A DNA stretch of 64,000 nucleotides, from IMG/VR virus record IMGVR_UViG_3300015607_005478; one strand, written 5' to 3'. Shown here piece after piece: positions 3,695 to 28,212 of the stretch. The DNA is from an uncultured virus (IMG/VR IMGVR_UViG_3300015607_005478). Taxonomy: Duplodnaviria > Heunggongvirae > Uroviricota > Caudoviricetes. The notes below the pieces were generated by a model. That model was not told where the DNA came from. It worked only from the letters and a program-made list of their open reading frames with translations, and ran no database searches. The translations under genes and the position numbers were made by a program. Each line of letters starts with the position of its first letter. Within the stretch, counting starts at the first letter, position 1.

Positions 3695-4137
3695 TCCGTC
3701 TCGAGCTCCCCTACCTTCCTCCCTCCTCGAATCAGGCCTACGTCAACATCCCGAGGAAGGGTCGTGGGCTCAGTCCGAAGGGGAGGAAGTTCAAGACAAC
3801 GGCCACGGCTCACTTCGCGCAGAAGTACCCGCGCGAGATGATGTTCTTCAAGCCGAACAAACCGTATCTCATCGTGATGCGGTTCCACTTCGAGCTGCTC
3901 GAGAACAAAGGTTTCGCGACCGGCGAGGCTGAATCACGGTATAAGGTCTTCGACGGCGGCAATCGTACGAAGCTGCTGGAGGACGCGTTGAAGGATGCCG
4001 GCGGCATCGACGACTCCCAAACGCTGACCTCCATCTGGCAGAAGGAGAAAGCCGACCACGAGTACACCATCATCTGGGCTTGGGCCCTCGAGGAGGAGTC
4101 CTGTGAACTCCACGAGCTCGTACGAAGTCTCGCCTGA
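3691..4137 (+). CDS. rusA: RusA-like resolvase
   Basis: PPSSN, DxxNxxKxxxDAL (DGGNRTKLLEDAL), IDDSQ. Confidence 0.85.
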   Translation: MIRLELPYLPPSSNQAYVNIPRKGRGLSPKGRKFKTTATAHFAQKYPREMMFFKPNKPYLIVMRFHFELLENKGFATGEAESRYKVFDGGNRTKLLEDALKDAGGIDDSQTLTSIWQKEKADHEYTIIWAWALEEESCELHELVRSLA

Positions 4138-4504
4138 GAACCGGGAGTTCTACGCGCTGTTCGCGCGGCTCAACCACACGGAGCTTTACCAGATTGCGCG
4201 CGAGGCCGGGCACGTTGTAATGCCCAACCTCACGCGTGAAGCACTCATCCGCATCATCATCTACGACCGCTCCGCGCCGAACATCGACGAACAGTCGTTC
4301 GATGAATGGCGTTGGGCCATCATGCGCTTCATCATCGATCATCGAAAGCGACTGGAGACGCAGATAAGCTGCCCCGCCCGCTCCTTCAAAGAAGACGCGT
4401 GCTTTGGCTGTGTCGACGCTCAGGTCGTGAGTTGCCTCGCCGATAACGCCAAAGCCATCCACCTGATCCAGCTGCACCGAAAGAAGCCAGGAGAGAGAAC
4501 ATGA
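4103..4504 (+). CDS. Hypothetical protein with Cys cluster
   Basis: GAGGAG SD before GTG; stop overlaps next start (ATGA). Confidence 0.6.
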   Translation: MNSTSSYEVSPENREFYALFARLNHTELYQIAREAGHVVMPNLTREALIRIIIYDRSAPNIDEQSFDEWRWAIMRFIIDHRKRLETQISCPARSFKEDACFGCVDAQVVSCLADNAKAIHLIQLHRKKPGERT

Positions 4505-5463
4505 GCGAATCGAACCTTACTCCGCAGACCGCCCCCCGCACGCTCGAGGGCTTGATGTCGGAGACACCCTTCAAACTGCGCCTGCTGCTCACCGACCTCG
4601 GCGGTCTCCAGACCGAAGAGCAGAAGATGGGCTGGCACCAACTCTCGACTCCCGAGATGCGCGCGCAGCACGTCCTCGCAGTGCTCAAGAATTGGGATCA
4701 AGCGAACCCGGGTGTCGCGCAGCCCCCGCCGCCCCCGATGCAGCAGCCGATGAACGGCCAGATGAACGGGACACATGTACCGCAGCAGCAGATGCCCCAG
4801 CAGCCGCCGATGCAGCAACCCATGGGCCTGACGGGCAGCGGCGCGGCTCAGGGCTTTATGCCGCCGCAAGGTTTCCCGGTGCAAGGTTTCCAGATGCCGG
4901 GTCAGGTACCGGGCTTCGTTGCGCCGCAGCCGGTTATGCCGGTTCCCGCGGGCACGGTGATGGCTCCTGGTGCCCCGCCGATGGTTTCCCAGCAAGCGGC
5001 GCAAGCCGCGGCTGCGGCCACGCAGAGCGAGACGCCGAAGAAGGGCGGCAAGCGCTCTCCGACGAACAACGGTGTCGATGCCGGCACCGGTGCGGCAGCG
5101 CCCGCCGACCTCGGCGCGCAAGTTCTCAGCATGCTGCAGACCGTGCTTCAGGGACTCGGCAACGAAGCCAACAACCGCATGGCTTGGCAGAAGCAGATCA
5201 CCGACATGCTCGAAGAGGCGGCGAGCTCGAAGGCGAGTCGCGTCACCGCGCTCGAGTCGAAGTACGGCGAGCTCGCAACCGCACTCCATTCCCTCTCCGA
5301 GGCGCTGCAGACGCAGCAGCGGCTTCAGATCTGGACCTTGATGGCGTTCCTCACGCTCGCTGAGCAGCAGACCGGCGCGAGCGTCGTGCAGATTCTTGGC
5401 ACGGCGATCAGCGACAGCGCGATGTTCAACAAGTTCGTCGATCAGGCCACGGGAAAATCCTAA
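4501..5463 (+). CDS. Q/P/M-rich low-complexity and coiled-coil protein (short frameshift isoform)
   Basis: AGGAG SD; QQPM repeats; ends ACG GGA AAA TCC TAA. Confidence 0.8.
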   Translation: MSESNLTPQTAPRTLEGLMSETPFKLRLLLTDLGGLQTEEQKMGWHQLSTPEMRAQHVLAVLKNWDQANPGVAQPPPPPMQQPMNGQMNGTHVPQQQMPQQPPMQQPMGLTGSGAAQGFMPPQGFPVQGFQMPGQVPGFVAPQPVMPVPAGTVMAPGAPPMVSQQAAQAAAAATQSETPKKGGKRSPTNNGVDAGTGAAAPADLGAQVLSMLQTVLQGLGNEANNRMAWQKQITDMLEEAASSKASRVTALESKYGELATALHSLSEALQTQQRLQIWTLMAFLTLAEQQTGASVVQILGTAISDSAMFNKFVDQATGKS

Positions 5464-5669
5464 GCGCCGGGTCCGACACGTGGCCGGGAACAACCCGGCC
5501 CGTGGGCGGCGTGGACGTCGCATCGTTCGACTTTGACGAAAGTGCGATCGATACGATGAGCGACGGCTCGATTCTCGAGCTCGCCTACAAGGTCGGGGTG
5601 CTGCTTGAGGAAGAGCGCCGGTTCCCTGAGCTTGTTCGGATTCGGCTCAAGCGAAACATCTACGCGTGA
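5451..5669 (+). CDS. -1 frameshift extension of 4501..5463 (~70 aa)
   Basis: Slippery GGGAAAA 5451-5457; -1 frame open to TGA 5667-5669 with protein-like sequence and no SD of its own. Confidence 0.65.
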   Translation, partial: GKILSAGSDTWPGTTRPVGGVDVASFDFDESAIDTMSDGSILELAYKVGVLLEEERRFPELVRIRLKRNIYA

Positions 5670-5699
5670 CAACCGCTTTGAGCGGAAGTACAACAGAGA

Positions 5700-6024
5700 C
5701 TCTCATCCCTAACCACTGCAGGCAGAAGTCCTTCTTACACGTAGTGACCCGTGAATCGAAGTCCGTCACTGTCCTTCGATAGGCGGCTGAAGAAATGGGA
5801 TACTGGGAAGCGAGTGGTAACAATTCACCTTCGCAAGGAGGCCGGGACGCCGGATGAATTGTAAGCGACCCACCTCAAGCCGACAGAGGTAGATGGGGCC
5901 AAAGGCCAAGGCGATAAAGTCGGAGCGGCGAGCACGCCGCACATACCCGCGCCACCGGCTTTGACCGGAGTGCAAAGGGTGCAGGGCTAGAAGAAGGTTC
6001 CGGGGTTCGCCCCGGGACCTTTTT
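5700..6024 (+). ncRNA. Unassigned large structured RNA candidate (~320 nt)
   Basis: No credible ORF; many nested helices, GCAA tetraloop, pseudoknot, terminal UUCG terminator. Confidence 0.65.
5994..6024 (+). terminator. Intrinsic terminator
   Basis: AAGGTTCCGGGG-TTCG-CCCCGGGACCTT then T-tract. Confidence 0.85.
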
Positions 6025-6033
6025 CGTTAGTCC

Positions 6034-6062
6034 TTGACTCGCCACCGATCGCCTCGTAGGTT
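6034..6062 (+). promoter_or_regulatory. Sigma70-type promoter
   Basis: TTGACT-17 nt-TAGGTT. Confidence 0.6.
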
Positions 6063-6068
6063 CAGGCC

Positions 6069-6193
6069 AGAACCAATCGCGTGGGGCATACACGCAAGCG
6101 TCCGTCAGGACACTTCTAAAGGGTAGAAACTGCAACGCCCCGTGCACTCGGTTCTCAGCTAAGGCTGCTCCTCCCTCCCGAGAGCAGCCTTTT
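6069..6193 (+). ncRNA. Unassigned small five-way-junction RNA candidate
   Basis: Closing stem AGAACC/GGTTCT, four internal hairpins, complementary loops; flanked by promoter and terminator. Confidence 0.6.
6161..6193. terminator. Probable bidirectional terminator
   Basis: AAGGCTGCTC...GAGCAGCCTT between convergent units. Confidence 0.75.
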
Positions 6194-6655
6194 CTACTTT
6201 GTGGCGCTCAGGCCCCATGCCGCGAACCCGACGGCGGCGAACGCTGCGGCCGCGCCTACGACGACGCCGAACCACATCGTTCGGTAGAACGGCGGGTCTG
6301 CCACCTCGAGCTGCAACTTCTTGTTCTTTGCTTCGAGATCCGTGACGACGCGCGTGTACTTCTCTTGCTCGATGACGACGAGCTTCTTCTGATAGTCGAT
6401 GTCGGCTTGATCGAGCTTCTTCTGGAGCTCGACGTCGGATTGCAGTCGGAAGCGGTATTGCTGCAGATAGTTGGCCCAGCGCAGGGCGGTAGCCGGGTCG
6501 TAGAGCTGTCCGGAGAACGGCGCGGGGTCGCCTTTCTTTACGGCCTCGATCTTGTCATCACCCGGCGGAACAGGAACCACCGGAGCGATCGGATCGGCCC
6601 ACGCGAGCCGCGGAAGGAGCGCCAAAAGAACAATCGCGAGAACAGCGTTGCGCAT
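6194..6655 (-). CDS. Exported coiled-coil protein with C-terminal TM helix (spanin-like topology)
   Basis: Signal peptide ...AWA-D, coiled coil, hydrophobic C-terminus. Confidence 0.65.
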   Translation of the reverse strand: MRNAVLAIVLLALLPRLAWADPIAPVVPVPPGDDKIEAVKKGDPAPFSGQLYDPATALRWANYLQQYRFRLQSDVELQKKLDQADIDYQKKLVVIEQEKYTRVVTDLEAKNKKLQLEVADPPFYRTMWFGVVVGAAAAFAAVGFAAWGLSATK

Positions 6656-21667: not shown

Positions 21668-21771
21668 GTCATGCGTCTCCTTCCATAGTTCTTATCTCTG
21701 CGTAGAAGGCTGCCTTGCCGCGCTACGGCCGCGCGAGGTACTCTGCAGCACAACCATCTGGAACCCAGACG

Positions 21772-24700
21772 ATGGCCTACCTCGACCCGAAAGAAGCTTT
21801 CGAGCACCTCCAAACCCGCGTCCTCGAAGGCATTCGGGCTCAATTCCCCATCCAGGGGAAGCAGCAGTCACTTCATCTCGAAGGCCTCGAGGTGAAAGAC
21901 GAGCTGCACCCGGACGACATCAAGGGGCAGCAAGAAGCGAAGGTGTCCGGTAAAACGTGGTCGGTGCCCGTCTACGCCAACCTCGTCCTGAAAGACAATG
22001 CAGGGAAGGTCATCGACCGGCGCCGCTGGCGCGTCGCGGAGATTCCCAAGACGACGAGCCGATACAGCTACATCGTCGGCGGTCAGGAGTATCAAGTCGA
22101 CAACCAGTGGCAACTCAAGCCCGGCGTCTATGTTCGTCGCGACGCGAGTGGTGAGCTCGAAAGCCACTTCAACGTGACGGGCAAAGGCGCCCGAGCCTTT
22201 GACGTTGTGCTCGACCCGGCAACCAAGATTTTCTCAATGCAATACGGCAAGAGCCGGGCACATATCCCGCTCTACCCGTTGCTCAAGACGCTCGGTGTTC
22301 CGGATCAAGATCTCGAACGCTCGTGGGGAAAGGAAATCCTCCAGGCGAATCAGACCGTGCGCAAGGTCGACTCTGCGCTCGAGGCTTTCTACAAAGTGAA
22401 CAAGAAGACGGCTCCGCCCGATCGCGAGACGGCAGCGCAGCACTTCTACGATACGATGGCCGCGTCGACTCTGCGCCCCGAAGCGACGCAGGTGACCATC
22501 GGCAAGCCGTTCTCGTCGGTCAGCGGCGAAACGCTGAAGCTCGCCACCGAGAAGATGTTGAAGGTTCAGGCCGGTCATCCTGAGGACGATCGTGACTCTC
22601 TCGTCTTCAAGGACCTTCGTACGACGGGTGACTTCGCGTTCGACAAGCTGCGCAACGCAGGGCGCACGATCAAGCAGAAGGCAGAACGCAAGATCAACCA
22701 GGCGAAGGATATTCGCGACATCGTGAAGTTCGATCACTTCAACGAGCCGTTGAAGGAGACGTTCACGAAGAACCCGGCTTCGCGCACGGCAACGCAGATC
22801 AATCCACTCGAGATGGTGTCGTCCGCTCTCCAGACGACGATCATGGGCGTCGGCGGCATCAAAAGCGAGCGCTCGGTTACGGATGAAGCGAAGTTCGTGA
22901 ATCCGAGTCATCTTGGATTCCTCGACCCGATCCACACCCCTGAAGGTGAGAAGACGGGTATCACTCTGCGCTTGCCCATCGGCATCAAGAAGGTCGGCAA
23001 TGAAGCGCGCATCCCGCTCTTCAACTTGAAGACTGGGCGCATCGAAGACGTGTCCGCACCCGAGTTCATGCGCGCGAACGTTGTTCTTCCCGACCAGGTT
23101 CGTTGGGAGAACGGGAAGCCGCACCCGCTCGGCGCGACCGTGCGCATGAGCGGAAGCGACAACCAGATTCGAGACGGTCACTTCAAGGACGCGCAGTATG
23201 TGATGCGTCATGCGTCGCAGCTCTTCAACATGACGTCGAACCTGATCCCGTTCCTCGGGAACACGTCCGGCAACCGCGCTTCGATGGCCAGCCGTCAGAT
23301 GGAACAGGCCATCTCTCTGGTTCATCGCGAGGCGCCTCTCGTGCAGGTCGGTACAGGTAGCACTCTGAAGGGCGCCGACACGTTCGAGAATCTGATGGGG
23401 CGCCAGACGGCACACGTCGCGCCGGTGGACGGCAAGGTCGTGGCGCTCACGCCGGATCACATCACGATTCAAGACCACGCCGGCGAGAAGCATCAGGTCA
23501 GCCTTTACAACAACTATCCGCTCAACGATGCGAAGGGCGTCATGCACTCGACGCCCCATGTCGAGGTCGGCTCTTCGGTGAAGAAGGGCGAAGTCATCGC
23601 CGACACGAACTTTTCGAAGAAGGGAACGCTCGCCCTCGGTACGAATCTCCGCGTCGCGTACGTTCCGTTCAAGGGCTACAACTTCGAAGACGGCATCGTC
23701 ATCTCGCAAAGCGCCGCAGACAAGCTCGCGAGCGAACACCTCCATAAGCCGAATCTGGATGTGGACAAGGACATGGTGCTCGATAAGCACAAGTTCCACA
23801 TGCAGCAGCCTGGCGCGTTCTCTGTCGCGCAGCTCGGGAAGCTCGATGATCGAGGCGTCATCCGTGTCGGTCAGAAGGTGAAGCCGGGAGACCCGCTCAT
23901 CGCAGCGATGAAGCCGTACAACATCAAGGACCGCACCGGCCTCGACGCGATTCGTCGGGGCATGAGCGGCGCTCACACGGACAAGAGCCTTCGCTGGGAC
24001 AGCGAGTTCGACGGCGAGGTTGTAGGCGTTCACGAAGGCAAGAACGGCCTTTCTGTTCACGTACGCACCGTCGAGCCGATGCAGATCGGCGACAAGATGG
24101 CCGGTCGATACGGCAACAAAGGCATCGTGACGATGATCCTGCCGGATCAGGAGATGCCGCACACAAAGGACGGCAAGCACATCGAGGTCGCCCTGAATCC
24201 GTCCGGTGTGCCCGGACGCATGAACGTCGGCCAAGTGCTCGAGACGGCCGCGTCGAAAATCGCGCTCAAGACGGGCAAGCCCTACATCGTGAAGAACTTC
24301 GAGCCGAACACGGACTTCTTGAAGAAGGTCCAAGCGGACATGAAGGCGCACGGGTTGAGCGACACCGAAGAGCTCCACGACCCGGTCACAAAGCAACCGC
24401 TCGGTCCGGCACTCGTCGGCCAACAACACCTCCTCAAGCTCGTTCATCAAGTTGAGAAGAAGCTCTCCGTACGTAGCGGCACGAGTACCGTCGGCGGCGC
24501 AGTGGAGCGCTACGACCAGAACCTGCAACCCACCAAGGGCGGGGGCACCGGCGGTCAAACCATCGGCACGCTCGGTCTGTACGCTCTGCTCGCGCACGGC
24601 GCGAAGGCAAACATCCGCGAGATGCAGACGTACAAGTCCGAAGGCCCGGATCCGCAGACGAACCCTGCGAAGCAGTGGCCCTCGGATCACAACCGCCTCT

Positions 24701-27700
24701 GGGCAGCGATCCAGACGGGTGGTGCATTCCCTACGCCGAAGCCGACCTTCGCCTTCCAGAAGTTCACGGACATGCTCCGCGGTGCGGGCATCAACGTCGA
24801 GAAGGACGGACACAACCACGCATTCATCCTTACGCCGTTGACGGATGATCACATCAAGTCCTTGGCGAAGAAGGAGCTGCCGAAGCCCGCCGAAGTGCTT
24901 CAGGCGAAGCTCGATAAGAACGGCGATCCCAAACCGAAGCCGGGCGGGCTCTTCGACGAGCACCTCACGGGTGGGCACGGCGGTCGGCAGTGGACGCGTA
25001 TTGGCCTCGCAGAGCCACTTCCGAATCCTGTCTTCGAGGGACCCATCCGATCGCTTACGGGCCTGAAGCAAAAGGACTTCGATGGAATCATCGGAGGATC
25101 GATCGGTGTTACTGCCAATGGCCGTCTCACACAGCCGTCGGCTGGTGTAACGGGCGGTGCCGGCATCAAGATCTTGCTCGACGGCATCAACGTAAAGCGG
25201 GACCTGCCCATCGCGGAGAACGAGCTCCGTGACGCGAAGGGACAGCAGCACGTCGATAATGCACTGAAGAAGGTGAAGTACCTTCGCGCGCTCGACCAGC
25301 TGCAGATGACGCCGTCGCAAGCGTACATCCTGCACAATCTTCCGGTCGTTCCTCCGGTGATGCGCCCGGTCAGCAAGATGCCGAGCGGCTCGCTGCGCTT
25401 CGCGGATCTCAATCAGCTCTACTCCGACTTCGCGAAGGTCAACGAGAAGCTGAAGGACCCCGTTCTCTCGAAGAACCTGACCGACGAGGGTAAGAAGAAG
25501 CTCCGCGAGGATTTCTACGATGGCGCGAAGGCCATCACCGGAATCGGCAAGAGCTACGAGCTCGCCGATCACAAGGGTTTGCTTCACGAGATCATGGGTA
25601 GCTCGCCGAAGCGCGGCTACTTCCAAGACGTGCTCGTGAATCGTCGGCAAGATCTCACGATGCGCTCGACCATCGTGCCCGAGCCCAAGCTCGGACTCGA
25701 TGAAGTCGGCCTCCCGAAGAACGCTGCGCTCGACCTCTTCCGGCCCTTCGTCATTCGCAAGTTGAAAGAGATGGGCGCCATCCAAAACGAGCTGCAGGGT
25801 CCTGCGGCAATCACGAAGCAGGGTCCGCAGGTCTGGCGCGCGCTCGACAAGGTGATGGCCGAGCGTCCCGTGCTCCTGAAGCGCGACCCCGCACTGCACA
25901 AGTACAGCGTTCAAGCCTTCCGAGCGCGCGCCTCTGAAGGCAACGCCATTCAGATTCATCCACTTGTCACGGGCGGCTTCAACGCCGACTTCGACGGAGA
26001 CACGATGAGTGTCTTTGTGCCCATCACGCGCGAGGCCGTTGCGGAAGCGCACAACATGTTCCCCTCGCGAAATCTCTTCAGCGAGGCCTCGGGCAAGGTC
26101 ATGTACCAACCGACGCTCGAATCCGCGCTCGGTCTCTACAAGCTCTCAGACGTTCGGCACAAGACCGACCGCGCGTTCACCAGCACGGACGCCGTCATCG
26201 AAGCAGCGAAGAAGGGCTCGGTGCACATCAATGACATCGTCCGCTTGCCCAGCGGCCAGACGACGCCTGGTCGTGTTCTTCTTTCGAACGCGCTGCCTGA
26301 GCCGATGAGGCCCAAGTTCCTCCACGATCTCGACTACCGCATCAACAAGAGCGGTCTGAGCTCGATGTTGCACCAGCTCGCGAAGGACCACTCCCCGCAA
26401 TTCGGAGAAGTGGTCAACAAGCTCAAAGACCTTGGCAATACAACCTCGTTCGGTGCGATCGAGGTGCCGAAGGCGACGGCCGCTGGACATCCGTTCGACT
26501 TCAAATCGTTCGACAAGACCCCGGTGGCCGTACACAACAACGCTGCGACGACGTTCATTCCTATCGGGACGCACACGCTGTCACTGAAGGACTTCGAGCC
26601 GGATCTCCAGACGCGCAATCACGTTCTCGGCCATGCCGAGAAGACGGTTGCCGGCATCTACGGAAACAACAAGCTCACGCAGGCCGAGAAAGATCGGCAG
26701 GCCATCTCGGTCTACAAGCAGGCTGAGAAGGAGATGAAAGCACTTCACGAAAAGAAGCTCGATAAGAACCCGACGAATCTCTTCACGATGTACCGTGCCG
26801 GCGTGAAACCCGATTGGACGGCGTACAAGCAGATGGTCATCGCACCGATGATCTATAAGGACTCCGCCGACCGCGAGATCCCTACGCCAGTCACGAAGAG
26901 CTACGCCGAAGGTCTCGACGTTGGTAGCTACTGGACGCAGATGCACGGCGCGCGTCGTGGCTCTGTGCTCAAGGTGCAGGAGGTTCGCGAGCCTGGTTAC
27001 ATGTCGAAGCTCTTGATGAACAACATGATGCACATGCTCGTGACCTCGCCGGATTGCGGCACGACGAAGGGTATTTCCCTCGAGGCGCATGAGCCAGACG
27101 TCCATGATCGTTATCTTCAGCAGGACTTCACGCACGGCAAGATGCACATCCCTGCAGGGACGATGCTGACGCCCGACGTCGTCGGGAAGATCCGTGCCGC
27201 AAAGAAGGATGCGCTGCTCGTCGTTCGCAGCCCGATGAAATGCGAAGAGGAGAAAGGCGTCTGCCAGAAGTGCATGGGTATCGGCGCTGAGGGCAAGCAC
27301 TACGACATCGGAACGAACATCGGTGTACAGTCGGCTCACGCTGTCGGTGAGCGTGCCGTGCAGCTCACACTCAAGAGTTTCCACACCGGCGGCGCTGATA
27401 CCGGCGGTTCGAAGGTGCTGAACTCCTTCTCGCGTTTCCAGCAGCTCATGGAGCTTCCGAAGCACATTCCGGATGAAGCTTCGCTTGCAATGGTGAGCGG
27501 CAAAGTCGAGAAGATTCAACCGACGGCCACGGGCGTCGACATCTTCATCAACGGACGCAAACATCACGTTGGACGCGATCGTTCTGGTGCGGCGCTGCAC
27601 ATCCCGGCTCCGGGCGTTCCGCTCGAGGAGCCGTGGAAGATCCCTTCGCTTGGAACAACGGTCCGCGCCGGCGATCCACTCTCCGACCCAAACCGCACTT

Positions 27701-28212
27701 ACGTGAACCCGCACCACCTCTACGCAGCGACGGGCTCGATGGAGGAAGTGCAGAATCACCTCGCTCGTGAAGTCAACGAGCTCTACAAAGGTGAGAACGT
27801 GAAGCGCCGAGCCGTCGAGACCGTCGTTCGTGCGATGGGCAACCTCACGGAAATCATCCATCCAGGAGATCACGAAACGGTTCTTCGCGGTGAATACCGC
27901 CCGCTGTCTTCGGTTCAGCGTATGAACCAAGAGCTGACGAAGCAGGGGCTTCAACCCATCGAGCACCGGCCCGTGCTGAAAGGCGTCACCGTTCTTCCTC
28001 ATGAGATCCATGAGGACTGGATGGCCAAGCTTCAGCACGACAATCTTCGCGCGACGTTGTTGGACGCTGCCGCGACGCGAGGTATCTCTCACATTCACGG
28101 AAATCACCCCATTCCGGGTGTCGCTTTCGGTGCCGAGTTCGGTCTGACCGAGAAGGACTCGCTCAAGCCCGGCCTCGGCCATCTGAAGAACGTGCCGGGA
28201 CACAGCTACTAA
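21772..28212 (+). CDS. rpoBC: Single-polypeptide beta-beta' fusion DNA-directed RNA polymerase (phage-encoded)
   Basis: Beta motifs TPEGEKTG, GYNFEDG, GDKMAGRYGNKG, NPSGVPGRMNVGQ; beta' motifs RDPALH, NADFDGD (25981-26001), GERAVQLTLKSFHTGG; all in one frame. Confidence 0.95.
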   Translation: MAYLDPKEAFEHLQTRVLEGIRAQFPIQGKQQSLHLEGLEVKDELHPDDIKGQQEAKVSGKTWSVPVYANLVLKDNAGKVIDRRRWRVAEIPKTTSRYSYIVGGQEYQVDNQWQLKPGVYVRRDASGELESHFNVTGKGARAFDVVLDPATKIFSMQYGKSRAHIPLYPLLKTLGVPDQDLERSWGKEILQANQTVRKVDSALEAFYKVNKKTAPPDRETAAQHFYDTMAASTLRPEATQVTIGKPFSSVSGETLKLATEKMLKVQAGHPEDDRDSLVFKDLRTTGDFAFDKLRNAGRTIKQKAERKINQAKDIRDIVKFDHFNEPLKETFTKNPASRTATQINPLEMVSSALQTTIMGVGGIKSERSVTDEAKFVNPSHLGFLDPIHTPEGEKTGITLRLPIGIKKVGNEARIPLFNLKTGRIEDVSAPEFMRANVVLPDQVRWENGKPHPLGATVRMSGSDNQIRDGHFKDAQYVMRHASQLFNMTSNLIPFLGNTSGNRASMASRQMEQAISLVHREAPLVQVGTGSTLKGADTFENLMGRQTAHVAPVDGKVVALTPDHITIQDHAGEKHQVSLYNNYPLNDAKGVMHSTPHVEVGSSVKKGEVIADTNFSKKGTLALGTNLRVAYVPFKGYNFEDGIVISQSAADKLASEHLHKPNLDVDKDMVLDKHKFHMQQPGAFSVAQLGKLDDRGVIRVGQKVKPGDPLIAAMKPYNIKDRTGLDAIRRGMSGAHTDKSLRWDSEFDGEVVGVHEGKNGLSVHVRTVEPMQIGDKMAGRYGNKGIVTMILPDQEMPHTKDGKHIEVALNPSGVPGRMNVGQVLETAASKIALKTGKPYIVKNFEPNTDFLKKVQADMKAHGLSDTEELHDPVTKQPLGPALVGQQHLLKLVHQVEKKLSVRSGTSTVGGAVERYDQNLQPTKGGGTGGQTIGTLGLYALLAHGAKANIREMQTYKSEGPDPQTNPAKQWPSDHNRLWAAIQTGGAFPTPKPTFAFQKFTDMLRGAGINVEKDGHNHAFILTPLTDDHIKSLAKKELPKPAEVLQAKLDKNGDPKPKPGGLFDEHLTGGHGGRQWTRIGLAEPLPNPVFEGPIRSLTGLKQKDFDGIIGGSIGVTANGRLTQPSAGVTGGAGIKILLDGINVKRDLPIAENELRDAKGQQHVDNALKKVKYLRALDQLQMTPSQAYILHNLPVVPPVMRPVSKMPSGSLRFADLNQLYSDFAKVNEKLKDPVLSKNLTDEGKKKLREDFYDGAKAITGIGKSYELADHKGLLHEIMGSSPKRGYFQDVLVNRRQDLTMRSTIVPEPKLGLDEVGLPKNAALDLFRPFVIRKLKEMGAIQNELQGPAAITKQGPQVWRALDKVMAERPVLLKRDPALHKYSVQAFRARASEGNAIQIHPLVTGGFNADFDGDTMSVFVPITREAVAEAHNMFPSRNLFSEASGKVMYQPTLESALGLYKLSDVRHKTDRAFTSTDAVIEAAKKGSVHINDIVRLPSGQTTPGRVLLSNALPEPMRPKFLHDLDYRINKSGLSSMLHQLAKDHSPQFGEVVNKLKDLGNTTSFGAIEVPKATAAGHPFDFKSFDKTPVAVHNNAATTFIPIGTHTLSLKDFEPDLQTRNHVLGHAEKTVAGIYGNNKLTQAEKDRQAISVYKQAEKEMKALHEKKLDKNPTNLFTMYRAGVKPDWTAYKQMVIAPMIYKDSADREIPTPVTKSYAEGLDVGSYWTQMHGARRGSVLKVQEVREPGYMSKLLMNNMMHMLVTSPDCGTTKGISLEAHEPDVHDRYLQQDFTHGKMHIPAGTMLTPDVVGKIRAAKKDALLVVRSPMKCEEEKGVCQKCMGIGAEGKHYDIGTNIGVQSAHAVGERAVQLTLKSFHTGGADTGGSKVLNSFSRFQQLMELPKHIPDEASLAMVSGKVEKIQPTATGVDIFINGRKHHVGRDRSGAALHIPAPGVPLEEPWKIPSLGTTVRAGDPLSDPNRTYVNPHHLYAATGSMEEVQNHLAREVNELYKGENVKRRAVETVVRAMGNLTEIIHPGDHETVLRGEYRPLSSVQRMNQELTKQGLQPIEHRPVLKGVTVLPHEIHEDWMAKLQHDNLRATLLDAAATRGISHIHGNHPIPGVAFGAEFGLTEKDSLKPGLGHLKNVPGHSY

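Follow-up and report, generated by a model that had tools for sequence, protein, structure and literature searches.

A probable folded RNA gene, absent from known families, between convergent operons of a large tailed phage

The DNA analysed here (64,000 nucleotides, called the window throughout) is part of a large tailed phage, and its genes can be read from matches of the PHROG and Pfam type. They include proteins of DNA metabolism, such as a UvsX-like recombinase, a Cas4-like nuclease, a RusA-like resolvase, a helicase and a UDG-family protein, as well as structural and packaging proteins (a large terminase, a portal protein, a major head protein and a sheath-like protein). Several PHROG 'RNA polymerase beta subunit' families match different parts of a 2165-aa ORF (21715-28212, + strand), whose product looks like a fused phage RNA polymerase of the multisubunit type. 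Because the phage encodes this RNA polymerase-like protein, it may use promoters of its own that a sigma-70 scan would overlook. A look-up in sequencing runs found near-identical DNA in wastewater metagenomes, from which the phage may come.

The locus of interest is a non-coding gap of 524 nt (5670-6193) at the junction of the recombination operon (UvsX-like, Cas4-like nuclease, RusA-like) with a convergent operon. The + strand ORFs adjoining the gap end at 5463 and 5669, and a convergent gene on the - strand (6194-6655, ending at 6194) borders it on the right. The gene preceding the gap (4501-5463, + strand) encodes a Q/P-rich, low-complexity protein of 320 aa to which Pfam and PHROG assign no family; used as an anchor, this ORF yielded no relatives among viral contigs. 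According to a crude gene caller, the gap is the largest stretch of the window without a plausible gene. The original prediction, made from the letters of the DNA, had called it the largest ORF-free gap, which is essentially right because other long gaps mostly hold an ORF with coding bias. All flanking genes have a GC3 of 0.69-0.81 and a GC2 of 0.34-0.48; unlike them, the gap has no third-position GC excess in any frame, and coding bias is also absent from the small ORFs inside it, including one of 90 aa on the - strand (5875-6147).

The gap probably holds a folded RNA gene whose family is found in no database. As we picture it, this candidate (RNA1) would be a non-coding + strand RNA (~5700-6025) closed by a strong intrinsic terminator. 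Its length would be ~325 nt with a start at the proposed promoter, and greater if transcripts of the upstream operon have it as their 3' end. A base-by-base reading recovered, each in its place, all the complementary segments that the original prediction had listed (Table 1).

Table 1. Position of RNA1, of its proposed parts and neighbouring signals, and of the foreign contigs that match it.
Feature	Position	Strand	Basis or remarks
RNA1, candidate RNA	5700..6025	+	no coding bias; + strand folds better than - strand; G-U pairs and U tract fit + strand only
Upstream repeat copy	5661..5686	+	20/26 identical to 5944-5969 (repeat search)
Promoter-like GTGACA-17-TACAAC	5666..5694	+	sequence reading; predicted start near 5701-5703
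5' domain: P1 ACCACU/AGUGGU plus internal stems or H-type pseudoknot	5707..5819	+	least supported part
End-closing segments CCCT/AGGG	5707-10/5983-86	+	sequence reading
P1 ACCACT/AGTGGT	5712-17/5813-18	+	sequence reading; pair probability 0.5-0.67
Pseudoknot stem AGTGAC/GTCACT	5743-48/5765-70	+	sequence reading
Pseudoknot stem ATCGAAG/CTTCGAT	5755-61/5774-80	+	sequence reading
Three-way junction	5820..5862	+	best supported part; z -3.94 (5818-5864), 0/200 shuffles as good; pair probabilities 0.72-0.96
Junction closing helix, 8 bp, ACAATTCA/TGAATTGT	5820-27/5855-62	+	sequence reading
Invariant core, 66 nt	5863..5928	+	no difference listed in X6, X8 or X9, all of which cover it
Stem ACCTC/GAGGT	5872-76/5886-90	+	sequence reading
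Candidate long-range contact AAGCCG/CGGCTT	5877-82/5956-61	+	sequence reading
Hairpin GCGGCG-AGCA-CGCCGC	5925..5940	+	pair probability 0.95-1.0
Variable 3' domain	5944..5986	+	z -0.48; outer stems not conserved in detail
Inner hairpin CCGG-CUUUGA-CCGG	5955-5968	+	lies in downstream copy (5944-5969) of 26-nt repeat
Intrinsic terminator: 16-bp stem, UUCG loop, A-rich 5' arm, U tract	5990..6025	+	pair probability 0.99-1.0
Contig X6, soil DNA	5863-6072		16 other letters, 5 gaps
Contig X8, guessed RNA library	5777-5928
Contig X9, RNA library, depth 12.5	5841-5944		unaligned tails

Folded as a whole, the + strand (5700-6026) reaches -130.9 kcal/mol with a z of -3.07, and none of 100 shuffles is as good; the - strand has a z of -1.98. 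The + strand value arises mainly from the 16-bp terminator, since the body without it (5700-5990) has a z of -0.77, and 37/200 shuffles fold as well. Among the parts, the three-way junction stands furthest from its shuffles (Table 1), and the junction taken together with the core (5818-5943) has a z of -2.71 (3/200 shuffles as good), compared with -0.80 for the 5' domain (5707-5820, 40/200) and 58/200 shuffles as good for the 3' domain (5941-5990). Thermodynamically, only the centre of RNA1 exceeds chance. The initial description of ~320 nt of highly structured RNA, with a comparison to shuffles as its check, therefore stands for the three-way junction and for the whole stretch, terminator included, but not for the body as such.

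In the proposed architecture, the functional centre would be the GNRA-capped junction followed by the 66-nt core, both flanked by variable stems. One arm of the junction is the hairpin CCTTC-GCAA-GGAGG, capped by the GNRA loop GCAA, and the other is the hairpin CCGG-GACG-CCGG. The core contains the hairpin ACCUC-(AAGCCGACA)-GAGGU, the hairpin GGCC-AAA-GGCC and a purine-rich linker, AAGGCGAUAAAGUCGGA.

Variation in this region can be followed in contigs from public sequencing runs, which were compared with the 801-nt stretch 5500-6300. Three short contigs from three other studies (X6, X8 and X9) match within 5777-6072 at 90-96% identity; all three map to the RNA, and the coding flanks of the stretch have no such match. 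For X8 and X9 the evidence consists of contigs, from which neither transcript ends nor strand can be read, and presence in an RNA library is not proof of transcription. These two contigs are identical across their overlap. The differences are clustered: X8 has seven substitutions and three deletions in 5777-5862, while in X6 11 substitutions and three indels fall in 5929-5984 and none in 5985-6030, a segment that includes the terminator. By our own arithmetic, X6 and X8 would each leave the 66-nt core free of changes with a probability of ~0.02, two values that are not independent because the contigs may share ancestry.

Several of the differences bear on the fold. In the X8/X9 type, the junction pair 5822:5860 has changed on both sides, from A-U to G-C. 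The GNRA hairpin of this type carries three substitutions and two deletions and looks broken when read in a fixed register, but re-forms as a 4-bp stem, with two of the substitutions in the stem; the third turns the loop from GCAA into GUAA, which is still GNRA. Refolded as a whole, the X8-type junction recovers the original three helices at -15.1 kcal/mol. As a control, 3000 random variants of the 47-nt junction were made with equal numbers of changes: their mean was -8.96 +/- 3.0 kcal/mol, 104/3000 reached -15.1 kcal/mol and 34/3000 also kept the shape. Against the fold, X8 turns 5827:5855 into A-A and loses the outermost junction pair through a deletion.

Beyond the core, 5929 C>U in both X6 and X9 converts a C-G pair of the 5925-5940 hairpin into U-G, which is permitted on the + strand only. 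In the 3' domain, X6 keeps the inner stem of 5955-5968 and changes its loop, and the unaligned tail of X9, read by eye, holds a 5-bp version of the same hairpin in which a C-G pair is replaced by U-A. The changes at 5948 and 5951 are one-sided and allowed; X6 breaks the outer pairs 5945:5980 and 5952:5970 and folds its outer 3' stems in another way. The long-range contact listed in Table 1 is a putative one, and it would compete with the inner hairpin, where the compensatory change is seen. Taken together, the fixed-register reading and the refolding give one change on both sides, one re-registered hairpin, three compatible one-sided changes and three broken pairs, spread over two or three lineages. 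This pattern is suggestive of selection for structure on the + strand at the centre of RNA1, though short of statistical proof.

In the 5' domain, an H-type pseudoknot is an unproven candidate that can be read from two crossing stems. Their pair probabilities are 0.00 and ~0.09 in a nested ensemble, a model unable to represent pseudoknots, so these low values speak neither for nor against the pseudoknot, and no variant contig spans the stems. The X8 change 5815 U>C affects P1, at a base whose pairing partner lies outside X8 coverage.

The family is rare. No full-length homologue of RNA1 was found in phage and plasmid collections, IMG/VR, prokaryote genomes or the contigs of public runs; in particular, blastn gave no match in the phage collection (with 346-nt and 6-kb queries) or among plasmids. 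Core words, degenerate patterns and gapped patterns were scanned through IMG/VR and one genome per prokaryote species, and a three-block gapped core pattern occurred in none of the genome contigs. Loci found with a core 19-mer (four in genomes, one viral) and with two 18-mers (none and two viral loci, respectively) had only 18-26 nt in common with RNA1 and were set aside as chance. The 61 viral loci with a degenerate loop pattern were likewise all rejected, the best of them reaching 10.8 bits with R1, a covariance model built on 5818-5942. Within the 64-kb window, the RNA1 element is the sole site that scores with this model. In the whole records of the related loci G001-G004 (L005 left out), its sole matches reach 12.7 bits and lie inside a 960-aa ORF, which we regard as chance.

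Relatives of the surrounding genes show what the locus looks like elsewhere. A neighbouring 153-aa ORF, used as an anchor, led to four viral, one metagenome and two genome loci at 40-60% identity, none of which has RNA1 similarity by blastn. In G002 and G003, the ORF next to a homologue of ORF 4103-4504 is 318 aa long and reaches the convergent gene with zero gap. This proline-rich ORF (L002 3379-4335, - strand) occupies the same position as the gene for the 320-aa protein and has no detectable similarity to it. In G001, the closest retrievable relative, the same + strand operon ends with a terminator directly after its last ORF. The operon-end element there is a 12-bp G+C hairpin (L081 1738-1765) that was called on the - strand; by our reading, a T run follows it on the + strand too, and it may work in both directions. 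An RNA1-like insert is thus absent from all three syntenic relatives, so RNA1 appears to be a lineage-specific insertion, not part of a conserved backbone.

That absence, the ordinary folding energy of the body and the high identity of the foreign contigs, much of which shared descent could explain, are what would be expected if the segment had no RNA function. That is, it might be a decayed remnant or filler between convergent operons around a shared, possibly bidirectional terminator, with its similarity to other DNA due to close phage kinship. We consider this unlikely. The changes are unevenly spread, the 66-nt core having none and the 86 nt and 56 nt on its two sides ~10 and 14, respectively, and the arithmetic for an empty core given above (P ~0.02 per contig) points the same way. 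Moreover, the changed junction keeps its fold to a degree that few random variants do, and retains the loop class.

A more serious question is whether RNA1 is a unit of transcription in its own right. The promoter-like site in front of it is an unproven candidate for a promoter of its own: a consensus scan of 5300-6500 accepted no promoters, this site being among those not accepted, and a k-mer search of intergenic regions for a phage promoter motif returned codon-like words only. In addition, a terminator scan found no site between the ends of the + strand ORFs (5463 and 5669) and the one at 5996-6024. Since nothing terminator-like separates them, transcripts of the operon must run into RNA1 whether or not the weak promoter is used. 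With neither a separating terminator nor an accepted promoter, RNA1 may be only a 3' UTR.

Read in this way, the segment would be the structured 3' UTR of the recombination operon, lacking a promoter of its own and serving either as protection against 3' exonucleases or as the source of a 3'UTR-derived small RNA. A 26-nt direct repeat with copies 283 nt apart (5661-5686 and 5944-5969) can be fitted into such a scheme. Its upstream copy, which lies outside the proposed transcript, overlaps the stop codon of a 55-aa ORF (5502-5669), sits in the spacer of the proposed promoter and forms a hairpin of four G+C pairs around a UUUGA loop (5673-5685). Hairpins with a (C)TTTGA loop occur just twice in the 64 kb, counting both strands, the other being that at 5955-5968; in a 3' UTR, the pair might be processing or binding marks. 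By our own estimate, the chance of the repeat alone is ~0.04, which is borderline, and the copies could be processing marks, protein-binding sites or a product of chance. What weighs against the 3' UTR is the element itself, as 330 nt with an invariant 66-nt core exceeds the needs of a stability element, and G001 closes the same operon without one.

A second contig from the wastewater run X5 touches the same question. It is 251 nt long, with a depth of 2, and matches just 5652-5709 (six differences), which includes the promoter-like site; its 193 nt beyond 5709 are unlike the window. A relative co-occurring in X5 thus seems to carry different sequence where RNA1 begins, which is consistent with a unit boundary near 5710 and speaks against a 3' UTR. 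Altogether, we hold the 3' UTR to be a somewhat unlikely account of RNA1.

At the other end, the UUCG terminator of the original prediction proved to be a strong intrinsic terminator on the + strand, and its core (5996-6024) was picked up by the terminator scan. The reverse complement of this element also reads as a hairpin followed by a U-rich run, so that the two convergent operons may share it as their terminator. On the - strand, another terminator-like site was found at 6097-6077.

Directly 3' of RNA1 we noted a second candidate small RNA, RNA2 (6034-6198, + strand; RNA part 6065-6198). It has a promoter-like TTGACT-17-TAGGTT (6034-6062), where the X6 change 6039 T>A gives a perfect TTGACA -35, and a closing helix GAACC/GGUUC that encloses a 9-bp G+C helix. 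It ends in a + strand terminator (stem 6161-6170/6182-6191, U-rich tail), within which the stop of the convergent gene also falls. Its fold has a z of -2.66, with 1/200 shuffles as good, and no Rfam family matches it at the gathering threshold. Pairing between the 3' domain of RNA1 and RNA2 gave no signal (243/300 shuffles as good).

It had been argued that no gene follows and that a riboswitch is therefore improbable. For protein genes on the + strand this is correct, as no ORF with coding bias was found there between 6026 and 6193; it does not hold for RNA2 and the convergent gene, and the presence of these two leaves room for a read-through switch. In such a sensor, formation of the terminator would be controlled by the junction and core, acting as a domain that binds a ligand or a protein, with read-through into the RNA at 6065-6198 and antisense transcription into the convergent gene as the output. 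Riboswitch-controlled antisense RNAs are known, and RNA1 resembles a riboswitch-terminator unit in having a conserved folded domain directly 5' of a strong terminator. A 7-nt word, CCGGGAC, is also common to the second junction arm (5842-5848) and the 3' arm of the terminator (6012-6018), so that the junction arm could pair with the 5' arm of the terminator. By our own estimate, however, the shared word is within chance, and the terminator has a pair probability of ~1.0 with no competing fold in the ensemble. RNA1 also differs from a riboswitch unit in having no known aptamer class (no riboswitch family matches at E<=10) and no + strand ORF downstream, and its terminator-proximal part (5944-5986), where a switch would act, is the most variable. 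We regard the sensor as decidedly unlikely.

Comparison with known families was equally negative. With the 4227 models of Rfam 15 and the gathering-score criterion, the whole window has no match. At E<=10, the stretch 5400-6300 gives seven weak matches, the best at 21.7 bits where the cut-off is 100; the terminator lies at the centre of those in 5916-6037, and three on the - strand (6067-6253) lie outside RNA1, whose body (5655-5995) has a single match of 11.2 bits. ARAGORN found no tRNA or tmRNA gene in the whole window, two-piece forms included, and none of the six frames, read by eye, has a tag-like peptide whose last residues before the stop are alanines. No RNase P model scores either, and so the original statement that the RNA matches none of tRNA, tmRNA and RNase P survives the Rfam comparison that it had called for. 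The ROOL, GOLLD, 6S, phi29 pRNA and HEARO models do not match RNA1. Three words of the core occur nowhere in six of the supplement files of a catalogue of structured phage RNAs (PMC10690425).

One resemblance was followed further and dropped. The segment AAAGUCGG (5917-5924) can pair with CCGGCUUU (5955-5962), and the two resemble what we take to be the strands of helix P4 in RNase P RNA. As an RNase P RNA the segment was rejected, given that the P4-like strands lie 30 nt apart, the other conserved regions are absent, no model scores and X9 favours the local hairpin. We treat the resemblance as coincidence.

The multi-helix junction with its GNRA tetraloop, the invariant core and the possible pseudoknot are features common to ribozymes, and a self-cleaving or otherwise catalytic RNA would accommodate them. 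No ribozyme family in Rfam matches RNA1 even at E<=10, though, and there are no flanking exons or repeats and no circular or multimeric context. On this basis, a ribozyme appears highly improbable.

Among known systems, RNA1 invites comparison with several. Like ROOL and GOLLD, which are multi-helix non-coding accessory RNAs of phages and prophages, it combines a conserved core with variable peripheral stems; those RNAs are roughly twice its length or more, and it differs from them in having no tRNA neighbours and no Rfam match to either model. ROOL and GOLLD have been described as forming RNA-only complexes (PMC12286853). RNA1 also resembles a moron in its place at an operon boundary, its absence from syntenic relatives, and its flanks of a promoter-like site and a terminator of its own. 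Classical phage morons encode proteins, whereas RNA1 has no coding signal. The phi29 pRNA, a protein-bound scaffold, is likewise a phage-encoded RNA built around a three-way junction. RNA1 is longer, lies in a region of DNA metabolism and has no Rfam match to it, and its host phage differs from phi29 in its large genome and sheath-like tail protein. The riboswitch-terminator unit and RNase P RNA are discussed above. We rate RNA1 as a new family within a known kind, the accessory structured RNAs of phages.

Our preferred reading, to which we give a probability of roughly 45%, is that RNA1 folds stably and acts in trans as a binding RNA, and that the phage carries it as an RNA-only moron. Under it, an accessory, RNA-coding moron would have been inserted where the recombination operon meets the convergent operon, and its invariant loops and linker would bind a protein or another partner. 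The analysis shows that the segment is non-coding and matches no known family, and it shows the strand, the terminator and the junction fold with its conservation; we infer the start of the transcript, its action in trans and a binding or scaffold role. Several features speak for this reading: the invariant loops and linker, the GNRA junction (GNRA junctions are typical of compact tertiary folds), the strong terminator of its own, the optional presence and the recovery of just this stretch from RNA libraries. Long antisense pairing would not be part of this mechanism, and no signal emerged when the core was scanned for duplexes with 63 translation-start regions (9/100 shuffles did as well). 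Against a trans-acting RNA, the covariation comes from at most three lineages, and the body and the 5' and 3' domains are ordinary when compared with shuffles.

A bolder version of this proposal, which we think quite unlikely, would make RNA1 the first member of a new class of compact accessory phage RNAs with a host-acting tertiary fold, an RNA-only moron that moves independently of its flanks. The junction and the 66-nt core might then, for example, act as a small ribozyme, or as a decoy or sponge that captures a host protein of defence or RNA processing.

To our knowledge, few structured phage RNAs besides tRNAs are known, and ROOL and GOLLD have no known function. Comparative screens need many homologues, so RNAs as rare as RNA1 escape them. 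RNA1 would be a compact case that lends itself to experiment, being ~325 nt long with a clear terminator, a defined junction and a core that is unusually invariant. It looks like optional cargo and not core phage machinery, which points to a role in interaction with the host. Should experiments confirm its fold and a discrete transcript, the invariant core would offer a direct pull-down handle for its partner.
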